Virus record (IMG/VR): IMGVR_UViG_2778261154_000004
Source of the DNA: a virus
Taxonomy: Duplodnaviria; Heunggongvirae; Uroviricota; Caudoviricetes
Reading direction: 5' to 3' (one strand)
DNA length: 5,457 bases
The notes under the pieces were generated by a model. It did not search any database and was not told the DNA's origin. It worked only from the letters and a program-made list of their open reading frames with translations. Below are positions 531 through 4,830 of the stretch, piece by piece. The number at the start of each line of letters is the position of its first letter. The stretch's first letter is position 1. A program made the position numbers and the translations under genes.

Positions 531-839
531 TTAAACGAAGCGGATCTGGAGTTTTTTTCCAGTAGCGCGGGCGAATTTTTTTAGTGTGGCAAATGATGGG
601 CCGCTGATACCTGATGCGAGATTACTTTCCATTCTGGTGATCGCGGTCGCTTTTGTTCCCATTCGCTCGGCAACTTCAGCCTGAGTTAAGCCAGCTTCTT
701 TGCGTGCTGCCAGCATTTCATCAAGCAGTGCGAATTCGTCAGCGATAGCGTCGTATTCTGCTTTAAAAGCCGGGTCTTCCATCCATTTGGCTGCCATTTC
801 GTCGTGTGTCATGGTGGGGAGAGTGCGTTTACCAGTCAT
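531..839 (-). CDS. XRE-family HTH antitoxin (HigA-like)
   Basis: 102 aa with an HTH motif (GLTQAEVAERMGTKATAITRME) and C-terminal ATLKKFARATGKKLQIRFV. On the minus strand AAGGAGGT (complement of 846-853) lies 5 nt upstream of ATG 839-837. The start overlaps the upstream toxin stop by 11 nt. Confidence 0.8.
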   Translation of the reverse strand: MTGKRTLPTMTHDEMAAKWMEDPAFKAEYDAIADEFALLDEMLAARKEAGLTQAEVAERMGTKATAITRMESNLASGISGPSFATLKKFARATGKKLQIRFV

Positions 840-1158
840 GCTTAACCTCCTTCATTCTGGTTTCAGCTTTCTTGCGTTCGGCTGGCGGTGTTTTCTGCGT
901 TTTCTTTACAAAACTATGCAGCATGATGATGCGTTTCCCTGTCAGAGTGCAGTAAAAAACACGCGCGATCCCATCGTTGCCTTTAATTCTGAGTTCGAAA
1001 AGCCCGTCACCAAAGGCGCTGGTGTGAGGTTCTCCGAGATTGCTGCCATATATCTTCATACGTTCAACGAGATGTTGGTATCGGGCACGCATACTCAATG
1101 GAAGCCGATCGACTTCCAGCCTTACATCTTCACTGTAGTATTCGATAGTGTAGTTCAT
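829..1158 (-). CDS. RelE/ParE-superfamily toxin (HigB / phage Gp49-like, DUF891-type)
   Basis: 109 aa from MNYTIEYY; motif GDGLFELRIKGNDGIARVFYCTLTGKRIIMLHSFVKKTQKTPPAE is typical of the Gp49/HigB-2-type toxin fold. Toxin-first order with overlap into the HTH antitoxin. Start 1158 chosen; in-frame ATGs at 1170 and 1293 also exist. Confidence 0.75.
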   Translation of the reverse strand: MNYTIEYYSEDVRLEVDRLPLSMRARYQHLVERMKIYGSNLGEPHTSAFGDGLFELRIKGNDGIARVFYCTLTGKRIIMLHSFVKKTQKTPPAERKKAETRMKEVKHDW

Positions 1159-1203
1159 AGGTATCAACATAACAAAATCGTTATATGCATTCAAGGCCTG
1201 TAG

Positions 1204-1233
1204 TTGACGACAACACATATCCGGGGCTATATT
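1204..1233 (+). promoter_or_regulatory. Candidate sigma70 promoter (TTGACG - 18 nt - TATATT) facing rightward
   Basis: -35 TTGACG at 1204-1209, 18-nt spacer, -10 TATATT at 1228-1233. Predicted start near 1240, exactly where the first hairpin begins. Judged by eye only. Confidence 0.35.
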
Positions 1234-1239
1234 CCTCAT

Positions 1240-1316
1240 ACGCCAGCAAAATCTGGCGTCGGGATTGGCGTCCCGGATATCGAAACGGTGCATAACCGCG
1301 CTGGCGGTTTTTTTAT
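1240..1316 (+). ncRNA. Candidate small structured RNA or terminated leader (about 75 nt, three stem-loops)
   Basis: Hairpin 1 at 1240-1259 (ACGCCAG/CTGGCGT, perfect 7 bp, 6-nt loop); hairpin 2 at 1260-1275 (CGGGA/TCCCG); terminator hairpin 1294-1309 followed by a T-run. The CUGGCG motif recurs three times. No ORF with an RBS on this strand. Confidence 0.35.
1294..1316 (+). terminator. Rho-independent terminator (plus strand)
   Basis: AACCGC-GCTG-GCGGTT stem-loop (6 bp, 4-nt loop) followed by T7 (1308-1314). On the minus strand the hairpin is not followed by a U-tract, so it is unidirectional. Confidence 0.55.
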
Positions 1317-1476
1317 GCGCTAAGCACAGTCACATTCGCGATTTATGGTGGGCTGTGTGGGGGAGTTGAGAGACTCGCCGGATGTTTCGACCGGTTACGC
1401 CAACCCTGCACAGTTCACCACCCAGCGATTGGCGTCGCAGGTGGTGAGTTAAAAACCATCGAAACGCGAGGTCGTT

Positions 1477-2163
1477 ATGACTGTTCAGATTTCTGTCAAA
1501 AACCTTTCCCCTGTTACCTATAACCAGATTCCGGTAATCACAACTGAGTTGCTTGCCCGCCTTTATGGAACAGAAACAATCCGTATACAGCAGAATCACC
1601 ATGAAAATAAATCTCGGTTTATTGAGGGAAAGCACTTCTTTAAAGCTGTTGGTGATGAACTCAGAAATTTGCGACTAGTTTTAAACGAGTCGCAAAATGA
1701 GGTGAAAATCTCTCCCAAAACCCGCTCGCTCATCCTCTGGACAGAACGAGGCGCAGCCCGCCACGCAAAAATGCTCGAAACCGATCAGGCGTGGGAAGTG
1801 TTCGAAAAACTGGAAGACTGCTATTTCAGCCAGACTTCGAAAAGCGCAGGTCATCACGAGAAGAAAACCAGCGAGCTTTCTGCAAAAGATGCAAACAGTC
1901 TGGTATGGTTGTGGGATTATGCCAACCGCTCACAGGCATTATTCCGCGAACTGTATCCGGCATTAAAACAAATTCAATCGAACTATTCCGGCAGATGCTA
2001 CGACTACGGTCATGAGTTCTCGTATGTTATCGGAATGGCGAGAGACGTTTTAATCAATCACACACGAGATGTTGATATTAATGAGCCAGACGGACCAACG
2101 AATCTTTCTGCATGGGTAAGACTTAAGAACAAAGAATTACCTCCTTCACTACATCACTACTGA
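1477..2163 (+). CDS. ORF6N-domain phage protein (Roi / antirepressor-like), 228 aa
   Basis: RBS GCGAGG at 1466-1471, 5 nt before ATG 1477. N-terminal region ([48 protein letters not shown] ... [31 protein letters not shown]) fits the ORF6N pattern seen in lambdoid Roi/Ant-like proteins. C-terminal half unassigned. Confidence 0.7.
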
Positions 2164-2181
2164 CAGATTGCCAACGCAACG

Positions 2182-2204
2182 ACCCAGCTTCGGCTGGGTT
2201 TTTT
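2182..2204 (+). terminator. Rho-independent terminator (plus strand)
   Basis: ACCCAGC-TTCG-GCTGGGT: perfect 7-bp stem with a TTCG tetraloop (2182-2199), followed by a T-run to 2204. Lies 19 nt after the stop of the upstream gene. Confidence 0.7.
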
Positions 2205-2237
2205 ATTGCTGAATTTTCAATATGAGAGGACATGACA

Positions 2238-3609: not shown

Positions 3610-3794
3610 ACGCCACAATTCAAACGATACCAGAGCTTCTTATCCAGACACGAGGCAATCAGACCGAAGTGGCGAGGATGCTTTCCTGCGCAAGAGGAAC
3701 AGTGCTCAAGTACAACCGAGACAGCAAAGGCGAGCGTCACGTAATAGTTAACGGCGTCCTGATGGTCAAACAGGGCAAGAGGGGAAGACGATGA
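3606..3794 (+). CDS. ninH: NinH-like small HTH protein
   Basis: 62 aa; GNQTEVARMLSCARGTVLKY ... HVIVNGVLMV closely resembles lambda NinH as recalled. ATGA overlaps with rusA upstream and Q downstream. Confidence 0.75.
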   Translation: MNATIQTIPELLIQTRGNQTEVARMLSCARGTVLKYNRDSKGERHVIVNGVLMVKQGKRGRR

Positions 3795-4414
3795 GACTCG
3801 AAAGCGTAGCTAAATTTCATTCGCCAAAAAGCCCGATGATGAGCGACTCACCACGGGCTACGGCTTCTGACTCTCTTTCCGGTACTGATGTGATGGCTGC
3901 TATGGGGATGGCGCAATCACAAGCCGGATTCGGAATGGCTGCATTTTGCGGTAAGCATGAACTCAGCCAGAACGACAAACAAAAGGCTATCAACTATCTG
4001 ATGCAATTTGCACACAAGGTATCGGGGAAATACCGTGGTGTGGCAAAGCTCGAAGGAAACACTAAGGCAAAGGTACTGCAAGTGCTCGCAACATTCGCTT
4101 ATGCGGATTATTGTCGTAGTGCCGCGACGCCGGGCGCAAGATGCAGAGATTGCCACGGTACAGGCCGGGCAGTTGATATAGCAAAAACAGAGCAGTGGGG
4201 GAGAGTTGTTGAGAAAGAGTGCGGAAGATGTAAAGGCGTCGGTTATTCAAGGATGCCAGCAAGCGCAGCATATCGCGCTGTAACGATGCTAATCCCAAAC
4301 CTTACTCAACCCACCTGGTCACGCACTGTTAAGCCGCTGTATGACGCCCTGGTGGTGCAATGCCACAAAGAAGAGTCAATCGCAGACAACATTTTGAATG
4401 CGGTCACACGTTAG
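3791..4414 (+). CDS. Q: Late-gene antiterminator Q (lambda type)
   Basis: 207 aa beginning MRLESVAKFHSPKSPMMSDSPRATASDSL and including the CRDCHGTGR...CGRCKG zinc-binding region; essentially identical over its length to lambda Q as I recall it. SD AGAGGGGAAG precedes the start. Confidence 0.95.
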   Translation: MRLESVAKFHSPKSPMMSDSPRATASDSLSGTDVMAAMGMAQSQAGFGMAAFCGKHELSQNDKQKAINYLMQFAHKVSGKYRGVAKLEGNTKAKVLQVLATFAYADYCRSAATPGARCRDCHGTGRAVDIAKTEQWGRVVEKECGRCKGVGYSRMPASAAYRAVTMLIPNLTQPTWSRTVKPLYDALVVQCHKEESIADNILNAVTR

Positions 4415-4456: not shown

Positions 4457-4500
4457 TTGACTTTTTGAATAAAGTTGGGTAAATTTGACTCAAGAATGGC
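4457..4500 (+). promoter_or_regulatory. Late promoter pR' with the promoter-proximal part of the qut site
   Basis: -35 TTGACT (4457-4462), 17-nt spacer, -10 TAAATT (4480-4485), as in lambda pR'. Sequence from the Q stop to about +9 is near-identical to lambda, including a -10-like element in the initial transcribed region (AAGAAT here, AACGAT in lambda). Confidence 0.8.
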
Positions 4501-4674: not shown

Positions 4675-4749
4675 GGGTCAGTCGTATAAAGGTCATTACG
4701 GAAGGCTGTTAACCTTCTTATCGTGGTTCGAGTCCACGCTGTCCCGCCA
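4675..4749 (+). tRNA. tRNA-Asn-like, anticodon GUU (possibly degenerate)
   Basis: Cloverleaf traced by hand: acceptor GGGTCAG/CTGTCCC (6 bp plus a T-T mismatch at 4:69), U8, D-arm with A14/G18G19/A21, perfect anticodon stem GAAGG/CCTTC with loop CTGTTAA, perfect T-arm CGTGG-TTCGAGT-CCACG, discriminator G, encoded CCA. Confidence 0.55.
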
Positions 4750-4754
4750 AACAT

Positions 4755-4830
4755 GCTGGTTTAGCTCCAATGGTAGAGCAGTCGCCTTGTAAGCGAATGG
4801 GTAGCGGTTCAAGTCCGTTAACCAGCACCA
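4755..4830 (+). tRNA. tRNA-Thr, anticodon UGU
   Basis: Perfect 7-bp acceptor stem GCTGGTT/AACCAGC, D-arm GCTC-CAATGGTA-GAGC, anticodon loop CTTGTAA (U33, UGU, A37), T-arm AGCGG-TTCAAGT-CCGTT, discriminator A, encoded CCA. Minor deviations: C at position 14 and a G-A closing pair in the anticodon stem. Confidence 0.75.

Follow-up and report, generated by a model that had tools for sequence, protein, structure and literature searches.

Between a leftward toxin gene and a rightward antirepressor-type gene, the window (the whole stretch of 5,457 nucleotides that was analyzed) carries a compact series of RNA features, for which the original prediction had proposed a unit made of a promoter, hairpins, and a terminator. 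The unit proved to be real, with all of its parts located at 1204–1314 and an isrK covariance match. Its position was also as predicted, as a Gp49/RelE-family toxin gene is found on the minus strand at one side and a gene with ORF6N and P22AR_C domains on the plus strand at the other. The features of the locus are the following.

829–1158, minus strand: Gp49/RelE-family toxin gene of 109 aa, a neighbor outside the unit (RefSeq/PGAP start, domain search)
1204–1233, plus strand: isrK promoter-like site, −35 TTGACG (1204–1209), 18-nt spacer, −10 TATATT (1228–1233), 10 of 12 consensus matches
1240–1314, plus strand: IsrK small RNA of 75 nt, putatively also serving read-through transcripts as 5′ leader (RF01394)
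1240–1246 with 1253–1259, plus strand: hairpin 1, seven perfect pairs (ACGCCAG/CUGGCGU), loop CAAAAU (covariance model, fold)
1260–1264 with 1271–1275, plus strand: hairpin 2, five pairs (covariance model, fold)
1279–1287, plus strand: site b1 (AUCGAAACG), single-stranded linker complementary to the hairpin 2 loop in the C4-like RNA
1294–1314, plus strand: intrinsic terminator AACCGC-GCUG-GCGGUU, stem 1294–1299 with 1304–1309, loop GCUG, U7 at 1308–1314
1341–1425, plus strand: C4-type antisense RNA, counterpart of Gifsy-1 STnc1160/"orf45" (RF01695, 68.7 bits, gathering score 45)
1384–1390, plus strand: C4 site b′, GUUUCGA, complementary to b1 and b2
1397–1403, plus strand: C4 site a′, ACGCCAA, complementary to a1 and a2
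1429–1435, plus strand: site a2, UUGGCGU, a second copy of a1 in the antirepressor leader (sequence)
1459–1465, plus strand: site b2, UCGAAAC, 2 nt 5′ of the Shine-Dalgarno GAGG (1468–1471)
1477–2163, plus strand: antirepressor-type gene with ORF6N and P22AR_C domains, the regulated cargo (domain search; RefSeq "phage antirepressor Ant")
2181–2210, plus strand: terminator-like hairpin with a T-run, 3′ of the antirepressor gene (pattern scan)

The identity of the unit was given by the Rfam covariance-model search that had been suggested as a check. Positions 1240–1314 of the plus strand reached 77 bits with RF01394 (isrK), whose gathering score is 50 (E 8.4e-16), and the alignment takes in the whole model, positions 1–77 of 77. 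Only the isrK and c4-a1b1 families were assigned to this site by Rfam (E 8e-16 and 1e-10, respectively), the latter (RF03163) with 49.6 bits against a threshold of 46.7. In the window, isrK, c4-a1b1, and C4 each score above their own gathering thresholds and follow one another in the expected order; the first 38 nt of IsrK are identical to those of Gifsy-1 IsrK. Judged by its sequence, 1204–1316 is almost certainly the isrK gene of an E. coli lambdoid prophage. The 75-nt unit belongs to the previously described IsrK family and is not a new kind of element. Rfam places isrK outside the C4 clan, and in the Rfam scan isrJ was not found downstream of the antirepressor cassette in the window.

A sigma70-type promoter with its start exactly at hairpin 1 had been predicted, and at the sequence level this was borne out by TTGACG-18-TATATT and A1240. 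Because of the spacing from the −35/−10 site, +1 is expected at about A1240, from which the isrK promoter would drive transcription. Gifsy-1 has the same promoter arrangement (TTGAC-N18-TATATT), TTGAC and TATAnT-like hexamers stand at matching offsets in most of 107 related loci, and conservation between loci starts at the −35. In Gifsy-1 itself, PisrK drives transcription, and its deletion abolishes stationary-phase phage release (PMC4825925).

Fold and scan confirmed the perfect 7-bp hairpin, the second 5-bp hairpin, and the terminator with a U7 tract. Among 61 distinct sequences, hairpin 1 shows compensatory changes at six of its seven pairs, with 98.8% of the cells paired. Hairpin 2, which reaches six pairs in the minimum free energy (MFE) fold when a U-G pair is added, displays site a1 (UUGGCGU, 1265–1271) in its loop and 3′ arm. 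The invariance of hairpin 2 and of the CAAAAU loop is uninformative, because both were fixed by the search pattern. At the terminator, a U-run is present in 92 of the 107 loci and missing in 15, which means that not all family members have a short RNA; its length in the family ranges from 73 to 89 nt (median 77). Among the distinct IsrK sequences, 77 have a U-run, and in 75 of these it is adjoined by a hairpin with 5 bp or more, 49 different hairpins being used.

Some details of the original prediction had to be amended. The motif CUGGCG, said to occur three times, is found twice inside the unit on the plus strand (as CTGGCG at 1253 and 1301), the supposed third copy being either UUGGCG (1266–1271) or the complement at 1241–1246. 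The unit is also not free of open reading frames, since mechanical ORFs overlap it on the plus strand (1185–1295, 1204–1323, and 1265–1369) and on the minus strand (829–1293); what held of that claim is that none of them has a Shine-Dalgarno sequence. A 9-bp inverted repeat, ATATCCGGG (1217–1225) and CCCGGATAT (1272–1280), was considered as an operator or alternative stem and rejected, as its arms do not change together in relatives; only the second arm, 1272–1280, falls inside the IsrK transcript.

By pattern scan, the window has four promoter-like sites (7.3 expected), which is not above chance, and eight terminator-like sites (5.6 expected), which alone are not above chance either. The fold z-score of the single sequence is only −1.98 and does not by itself exceed chance. 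The evidential weight lies in the covariance-model match and in the conservation and covariation across about 107 related loci, not in the pattern scans.

Downstream of the terminator, the C4-like RNA has the ends AU/GGUGGG (5′) and CACCACC (3′), in sequence like those of P1, and by analogy with P1 the mature C4 RNA would be cut from its precursor by RNase P, repress Ant synthesis, and span approximately 1347–1422. The match of a1 (UUGGCGU) with a′ (ACGCCAA) is the same pairing as that of G28–C162 and G31–C159 in Gifsy-1, both validated there by compensatory mutation (PMC4825925). The predicted extended IsrK:C4 duplex has 25 pairs and −33.1 kcal/mol, and in the MFE structure of 1240–1500 a1/b1 are paired with a′/b′, which resembles the "structure A" of Gifsy-1. 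As b2 is followed at once by the Shine-Dalgarno and by the ATG at 1477, the downstream target site abuts the antirepressor ribosome-binding site; across loci, the matched b2-type site mostly ends 7–16 nt 5′ of the start codon. Whole-RNA comparisons of IsrK, the C4-like RNA, and the leader with RNAduplex were uninformative, 43 of 500 and 97 of 500 mononucleotide shuffles being equally good, because long weak duplexes dominate. Comparisons at the level of sites and segments were used in their place.

In the window ORF list, the interval from the C4-like RNA to ant contains no ORF. The equivalent of orf45, ORF 1345–1452, lacks a Shine-Dalgarno, and its stop lies 24 nt before the ant ATG at 1477. 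An orf45-type stop overlapping the antirepressor start was found at one of 96 loci, namely Gifsy-1; it belongs to the mechanism of that prophage rather than to the RNA family. These sequences suggest that "orf45" is conserved as an RNA, the C4-type antisense, and not as a protein; they also suggest, as a correction to the annotation, that isrK, c4-a1b1, and C4 belong together in a single cassette.

The pairing sites were then compared across related loci, after discarding about 10 of 86 genome-scan hits as chance matches without hairpin 1 or C4. Of 120 unique loci, about 110 of which are real, 107 carry an exact triple of a1, its reverse complement, and a2, which falls into 14 classes; in the non-cognate control, a match occurred in 2.6% of cases. 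The b sites are more diverse, with 60 distinct strings among the 107 loci, and complementarity of at least 7 nt was found between cognate pairs for b1 in 64 and for b2 in 83 of the 107 (about 1% and 4%, respectively, for non-cognate pairs). The a and b modules reassort between loci and remain matched within each, the variants (at least 14 for a, 60 for b) being seen in 68 combinations. With intramolecular folding left out of the energies, the predicted IsrK:C4 duplex is stronger than the leader:C4 duplex in 88 of the 107 loci (means of −31.9 vs. −27.2 kcal/mol), and the non-cognate duplexes reach about −20.7 and −18.0 kcal/mol, respectively. Because loop and linker co-vary with complementary sites in the adjacent C4-like RNA, the unit is read as an RNA–RNA pairing element.

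The cassette is located in the nin region, between the ninE/toxin–antitoxin pair and ant, approximately 2.3 kb upstream of Q. The N-terminal 123 aa of the antirepressor have 65% identity to Gifsy-1 AnrP, and the read-through transcript probably ends at the hairpin at 2181–2210. With the toxin start at 1158, positions 1159–1476 are intergenic.

The closest described relative is IsrK of Gifsy-1 (Padalon-Brauch 2008, PMC2330248; Hershko-Shalev 2016, PMC4825925), which is both a short terminated sRNA and the leader of a read-through antirepressor mRNA, its short form acting in trans as a translational activator of the long one (PMC4825925). Supplied in trans, it raises anrP translation 139-fold, and its overexpression leads to lethal Q-type antitermination; in the published model, orf45, which has a stop overlapping the anrP start, must be translated (PMC4825925). 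Lysogens of Salmonella transcribe both IsrK and STnc1160 at high levels, and it is from Salmonella that the evidence on IsrK as a stable short RNA and on its association with Hfq comes. A plain decoy model leaves unexplained that the cis mutations G28A and G31A in a1 of Gifsy-1 raised basal translation, and also that constitutive STnc1160 strengthened, rather than weakened, IsrK toxicity there.

Gifsy-1 and the window share the isrK, c4-a1b1, and C4 matches in the same order, as well as a terminator giving an RNA of 75–77 nt, then a C4-like region with ACGCCAA, and then an ORF6N antirepressor-type gene. They differ in the linker, b1, and terminator stem, b being UCGAAAC here and UCACCG in Gifsy-1, with b′ and b2 changed in step with b1. 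The C-terminal domain of the antirepressor is also different (P22AR_C in the window gene), and so is the location, since the Gifsy-1 cassette lies just downstream of antQ, whereas here it occupies the nin region beside a toxin–antitoxin pair. Moreover, the window has no orf45-type ORF overlapping the ant start. Because that stop/start overlap and the Shine-Dalgarno are absent here, the published Gifsy-1 mechanism cannot be transferred unchanged.

The immI region of phages P1 and P7, from the 1990 work of Citron and Schuster, reportedly consists of promoter P1c4 (P51b), a1, b1, the C4 antisense RNA, a2, b2, icd, and ant. The P1 record NC_005856 annotates promoter, a1, b1, C4, a2, b2, and icd in that order. 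As in the window, two short target sites precede the antisense RNA and two follow it, and the last one adjoins the ribosome-binding site of the first downstream ORF, as P1 b2 does relative to icd. C4 and c4-a1b1 score above threshold in both (P1 C4 with 68.8 bits), and the P1 leader shares hairpins 1 and 2 as well as a terminator-like hairpin, after which comes AUUUUUG. Its match to isrK extends along the entire model and reaches 35 bits, under the gathering threshold of 50. In P1, however, icd stands between C4 and ant, whereas here b2 directly adjoins the ant Shine-Dalgarno, and P1 has a second, C1-controlled promoter and operator annotated. By BLASTP, the window Ant and P1 Ant1 are unrelated (E 14). 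The P1 sites a1 and b1 are annotated as putative only, with no role assigned.

Two further systems are comparable. The immunity region of P4 (seqA, the CI RNA or seqB, and seqC) has been cited as a structural homologue of IsrK (PMC4825925). By its description, it has a processed antisense RNA flanked upstream and downstream by complementary sites in one transcript; there, pairing leads to premature transcription termination, whereas here, as in P1, the last site lies at a ribosome-binding site. In the APSE phages of Hamiltonella, isrK and C4 are annotated in tandem (PMC7313666; LR794147), and an isrK ncRNA and a C4-family ncRNA are followed by a gene for a DNA-binding regulatory protein (BRO-N). 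Host clade and cargo gene are different, and the a′ and b′ regions match the leader upstream of the BRO-N gene. The authors treat IsrK and C4 as two separate sRNAs and do not connect IsrK with a1/b1 (PMC7313666).

Taken as a whole, the best explanation is that the unit is isrK as the promoter-proximal a1-b1 leader, closed by an intrinsic terminator, of a c4-antirepressor cassette of the P1 immI type, acting as set out below, and we consider it probable. RNA started at A1240 would fold into hairpin 1, hairpin 2 showing a1, the b1 linker, and the terminator, giving the 75-nt product. By analogy with P1 and Gifsy-1, most transcripts would end at 1314 and release free IsrK, while some would read through into an IsrK-C4-ant RNA that yields no translation. 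The C4 domain, in cis or processed, may prevent it by pairing with a2/b2 and covering the ribosome-binding site, and/or the leader may adopt an inactive fold in which a1/b1 are paired with a′/b′. Free IsrK, as a close copy of the target with better-spaced sites, would pair with the C4 domain in trans and free the leader, and translation of the antirepressor would then push the prophage toward induction. From the comparison with the known systems, IsrK and the leader are most likely competitors for the C4-like RNA, so that IsrK lifts the block on antirepressor translation. As in Gifsy-1, the regulation would be an activation, and the structural path is the one we infer for this locus. The original prediction had proposed either a free-standing sRNA or a regulated leader, and both readings find support, the former in the IsrK family match and, by analogy, in the terminated short sRNA made by the Gifsy-1 copy, the latter in that same copy also leading the read-through antirepressor mRNA.

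More tentatively, and with slightly less than even confidence, IsrK may not be a free-standing sRNA family at all but a terminated a1-b1 leader that serves as a target mimic (an anti-antisense RNA) of the adjacent C4, with specificity encoded in the a and b sites. If this is true, the combinatorial a/b code would keep the antirepressor switch of each prophage private in hosts with several such prophages, Stx-converting phages included. The pieces of the mimic model are already in the literature, in a1/b1 of P1, the Gifsy-1 pairing, and the P4 analogy. In the literature, we found no explicit statement of the mimic model or the specificity code, nor one that places a2/b2 at the ribosome-binding site of lambdoid prophage antirepressor genes.

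Two other explanations of the unit assign no function to the short RNA. It could be an inert by-product of a pure cis attenuator, in which the terminator at 1294–1314 meters transcription into c4-ant. A terminator does stand between promoter and operon, ant expression needs read-through, and the 15 of 107 relatives without a U-run imply that the short RNA is dispensable in some lineages. However, Gifsy-1 IsrK, identical over nt 1–38, works in trans from a plasmid, with mutant and compensatory pairs mapped, and the changes in a1 and b1 follow those in a′ (14 variants) and b′ (60 variants), a correspondence for which a bare attenuator has no need; we regard this explanation as unlikely. The short RNA would also be without a role if a1/b1 acted only in cis, pairing with a′/b′ in the precursor to mask C4 or guide RNase P. 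Such pairing is found in the MFE structure of 1240–1500, it constitutes the Gifsy-1 "structure A," dominant in vitro, and the P1 record labels a1 and b1 merely as "putative" targets. Against it stand the trans activity shown in Gifsy-1 and the terminator, whose conservation in 92 of 107 loci with 49 covarying stems indicates that release of the short RNA is selected, and a purely cis-acting guide is accordingly quite improbable.

An antitermination RNA of the HK022 put type, whose two 5′ hairpins bind RNA polymerase in cis and give resistance to downstream terminators, had also been suggested. The likeness is superficial, namely two adjacent 5′ stem-loops of a phage transcript followed by a terminator, while the site falls to isrK and c4-a1b1 at the E values given above with other families unmatched, the exposed loop and linker co-vary with complementary sites in the C4-like RNA, and transcription of the unit would start from a promoter of its own in a nin-region insert, not just downstream of pL/pR. 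This reading was ruled out on context and covariation, without an alignment to put sequences, and is very improbable. Hardly any credence can be given to there being no RNA element at all, with the region being either the N-terminal coding part of the toxin (829–1293, minus strand) or motifs clustered by chance in a toxin–antitoxin control region. The minus-strand frame is indeed open to 1293, a toxin start that the original prediction had named as contrary evidence, and the pattern scans do not exceed chance. Nevertheless, PGAP starts the toxin at 1158, with the Gp49 domain (PF05973) covering residues 16–103 of the 109-aa protein. Furthermore, the block 1204–1316 is kept in loci without the upstream toxin gene, beside unrelated neighbors (antQ in Gifsy-1, ninE-side sequence in Stx phages), and the pairs of hairpin 1 covary.

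With the isrK–C4–antirepressor cassette, a known induction switch is now located in an E. coli lambdoid prophage; by controlling the antirepressor, such a switch helps to decide when a prophage wakes. By analogy, the switch would be of the phage P1 type, in which an antisense RNA controls an antirepressor gene, with IsrK as one component. Blast matches over 1218–1451, which covers IsrK and most of the C4-like RNA, were obtained in 755 of 5,426 complete E. coli genomes and also in the majority of matching Stx1- and Stx2-converting phage records. Given this distribution, the cassette could bear on spontaneous induction and toxin release.

All the structural elements that the original prediction had described in the unit (window 1204–1316) were found where it had placed them: a promoter-like site (1204–1233; TTGACG, an 18-nt spacer and TATATT), hairpin 1 with a perfect 7-bp stem (1240–1259), hairpin 2 with a 5-bp stem (1260–1275), and a terminator composed of a hairpin (1294–1309) and U7. 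Two details were inexact: CTGGCG, counted three times, occurs only twice on the + strand of the unit, and mechanical ORFs cross the region said to contain none. Because simple scans did not rise above chance (4 promoter-like sites observed in the window versus 7.3 expected) and the fold z-score was only −1.98, the case for the unit rests on family and comparative evidence. In the covariance search that had been proposed, the window was scanned against all Rfam families under curated thresholds, and three adjacent families exceeded them:

1240–1314, + strand: isrK (RF01394), 77 bits against a threshold of 50, full model
1227–1279: c4-a1b1 (RF03163), above its curated threshold
1341–1425: C4 antisense RNA (RF01695), 68.7 bits against a threshold of 45

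The reading of the unit as a small RNA or regulated leader was correct, and the element is an RNA family already described, with an experimentally studied homologue. The isrK (no clan) and c4-a1b1 (clan CL00128) matches share bases in the window (1227–1314), in the Salmonella prophage Gifsy-1 and in P1. Judging by sequence, the two Rfam entries seem to describe one element. The only content that may be new, with comparative support, is the view that IsrK, c4-a1b1 and C4 belong to a single cassette, with IsrK as its putative target mimic and carrier of a combinatorial specificity code.

The window belongs to a lambdoid prophage, of which it forms a part, and has the following features:

295–489: NinE
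531–839: HTH antitoxin, in a leftward pair with the toxin
829–1158, − strand: Gp49/RelE toxin
1477–2163, rightward: antirepressor-type gene (ORF6N and P22AR_C)
2232–2960: Rha/KilAC antirepressor-type gene
3791–4414: lambda-type Q, after YbcO, RusA and NinH
4457–4485: pR′-like promoter (TTGACT-17-TAAATT), 3′ of Q
4675–4749: tRNA Asn-GTT, between the pR′-like promoter and the holin gene
4755–4830: tRNA Thr-TGT, between tRNA Asn-GTT and the holin gene
3′ of the two tRNAs: lysis genes

An identical copy of window 1150–1480 is present in the E. coli VL40 chromosome, where RefSeq annotates a 109-aa toxin starting at window 1158 and names the rightward gene "phage antirepressor Ant". Only 45 bp (1159–1203) separate the toxin start, on the − strand, from the isrK −35. 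On the − strand, no sigma-70-like promoter for the toxin-antitoxin operon turned up in a pattern scan; ATAAC-N6-GTTAT (1169–1184), a short palindrome, might be an antitoxin operator.

The GenBank record of P1 annotates, in order, the promoter P1c4, a1, b1, the C4 RNA, a2, b2, icd and ant, and labels a2 and b2 as the sites of C4 repression of icd-ant translation. As in IsrK, the P1 leader has hairpins 1 and 2, with a1 in the hairpin 2 loop, and 3′ of hairpin 2 come a linker with b1, a terminator-like hairpin and AUUUUUG. The leader matches the isrK model from end to end, at a below-threshold 35 bits, and P1 is above threshold for c4-a1b1 and C4. IsrK thus corresponds, in lambdoid prophages, to the a1-b1 leader of P1, and the window sites, under the P1 names, are:

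1265–1271: a1, UUGGCGU
1280–1286: b1, UCGAAAC
1384–1390: b′, GUUUCGA
1397–1403: a′, ACGCCAA
1429–1435: a2, UUGGCGU
1459–1465: b2, UCGAAAC
1468–1471: Shine-Dalgarno GAGG of the antirepressor gene, 3′ of b2, with the ATG at 1477

Just 3′ of a2, GGUGGUGA (1440–1447) is complementary to CACCACC (1416–1422) in the 3′ arm of the C4-like RNA. The local MFE of 1416–1447 forms this helix and places a2 in a hairpin loop, like a1 in IsrK hairpin 2; so folded, it and the C4 outer stem would be in competition.

For the comparative analysis, 80 viral loci encoding antirepressor relatives were pooled with 86 loci that a single pattern scan had picked out in species-representative genomes, giving 120 unique sequences, about 110 of them real. 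The exact site-a triple (the hairpin 2 loop site, its downstream reverse complement and then a second direct copy) was found in 107 loci, in 14 sequence classes, while a non-cognate control matched in only 2.6% of trials. Site b was represented by 60 different matched strings in these 107 loci, and a stretch of 7 nt or more complementary to the C4 loop was observed in 64 of the 107 linkers (non-cognate, about 1%) and 83 of the 107 leaders (about 4%). The a and b modules have reassorted, with UCGAAAC, for example, combined with GGCGU, GGAAC or AGCAC, and the three copies nevertheless stay matched inside each locus. Because one of the three is a reverse complement, duplication or gene conversion is ruled out; the matched triples can be explained, as far as sequence comparison goes, by base pairing under selection. 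Compensatory changes were seen at six of the seven pairs of hairpin 1 which, together with the RefSeq toxin start at 1158, exclude a coding or chance reading. A U-run lies 3′ of the linker in 92 of the 107 loci, and 75 of the 77 distinct U-run sequences have a hairpin abutting it (49 different hairpins). The search pattern itself required hairpin 2 and the CAAAAU loop, so the locus set is no test of either.

In the species-representative genomes, the element is distributed across Enterobacterales and extends to some other Gammaproteobacteria. It is present in 755 of 5,426 complete E. coli genomes and in many records of Stx1- and Stx2-converting phages. Contigs labelled Xanthomonas, Thiothrix, Methylococcaceae, Cellvibrionaceae, Terasakiispira, Gilvimarinus and Desulfopila likewise carry complete a/b triples, and so do MAG contigs assigned to Parabacteroides and Solirubrobacteraceae, where binning errors may be involved (loci L083, L089, L092, L096, L097, L101, L104, L129, L140 and L157 of the set).

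The Gifsy-1 isrK locus has the same three Rfam matches in the same order, with nt 1–38 of IsrK identical to those of the window, a common promoter layout, and downstream proteins sharing 65% identity across the ORF6N domain. There, transcription from the isrK promoter either terminates to give the short IsrK or reads through into an isrK-orf45-anrP mRNA, which is made yet not translated; supplying IsrK in trans increases anrP translation 139-fold, AnrP in turn increases expression of the Q-type antiterminator AntQ, and deletion of the promoter abolishes stationary-phase phage release (PMC4825925). Mutant and compensatory mutant analysis backs the pairs G28-C162, G31-C159 and C18-G173, and the authors liken IsrK structurally to the P4 seqA/CI system (PMC4825925). 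Mapped onto the sequence, G28 and G31 fall in the UUGGCGU of the hairpin 2 loop, and C159 and C162 in ACGCCAA, within the Rfam C4 region; the window carries both motifs unaltered. The "orf45" region gives a stable processed RNA, STnc1160 (PMC4825925), and in Salmonella lysogens IsrK and STnc1160 were highly transcribed in 17 of 17 conditions tested (PMC7067206).

The orf45 stop overlaps the anrP start in Gifsy-1, alone among 96 loci, whereas the equivalent ORF in the window (1345–1452) lacks a Shine-Dalgarno and stops 24 nt short of the ATG; the Gifsy-1 mechanism is therefore not transferable unchanged. Across the family this ORF encodes 8 to 37 aa or runs on, and a Shine-Dalgarno was found for it in 0 of the 96 loci. 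On these sequences the region is conserved as RNA, in agreement with the authors' remark that nucleotides, not amino acids, are conserved (PMC4825925).

The window itself shows the parts, the order in which they lie and how they complement one another. By analogy with Gifsy-1, the short IsrK would act in trans, positively. The read-through RNA would be silent through one or both of two pairings: that of the C4 domain with a2/b2 at the ribosome-binding site, as in P1, and that of a1/b1 with a′/b′ in cis, as in "structure A" of Gifsy-1, which the MFE of 1240–1500 reproduces. Free IsrK would then compete for the C4 domain. The a1-b1 spacing (8 nt) suits that of b′-a′ (6 nt; a2-b2, 23 nt), making a nearly continuous IsrK:C4 duplex possible, and this duplex is predicted to be stronger than leader:C4 in 88 of the 107 loci; for both reasons, IsrK is expected to be a good competitor. 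A plain decoy model conflicts, however, with two Gifsy-1 results, as cis mutations in a1 raise basal translation and extra STnc1160 increases IsrK toxicity (PMC4825925). That the leader is an inert attenuator, or guides folding only in cis, is less likely, given the trans activity seen in Gifsy-1 and the conservation of the terminator, and the HK022 put-type antitermination RNA of the original prediction found no support.

In 15 loci (e.g., L085, L087, L091, L094, L113 and L116), the hairpin 3′ of the linker has no U-run, so the short IsrK may not be made there; such relatives, in Enterobacter, Leclercia, Rahnella and Yersinia, retain a1/b1, C4 and a2/b2. A natural deletion variant in a Leclercia MAG (L100, around 4089–4200) lacks the terminator and C4 RNA, and its IsrK hairpins 1 and 2 and b1 are fused straight to the Shine-Dalgarno and start codon of the downstream gene. 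In the window, GCAUAA (1290–1295) could pair with UUAUGC (1313–1318) around the terminator hairpin and U-tract, in the read-through RNA only. The terminator flanks of relatives are different yet complementary (e.g., CGACA...UGUCG and CGAUAUGA...UCAUAUCG), which suggests that an extended helix is conserved in the long transcript. A 9-bp inverted repeat joins ATATCCGGG (1217–1225), in the conserved promoter spacer, and CCCGGATAT (1272–1280), overlapping hairpin 2; it is probably incidental, since its arms do not change jointly in relatives. At one locus (L017, 1653–2462), about 530 nt separate the IsrK-C4 cassette (1666–1851) from an sRNA-Xcc1 family RNA (2379–2462, 73.5 bits) that lies 3′ of it and directly 5′ of the antirepressor homologue, an arrangement that L026 and L060 resemble; this antirepressor gene family thus sits behind at least two different RNA leaders.
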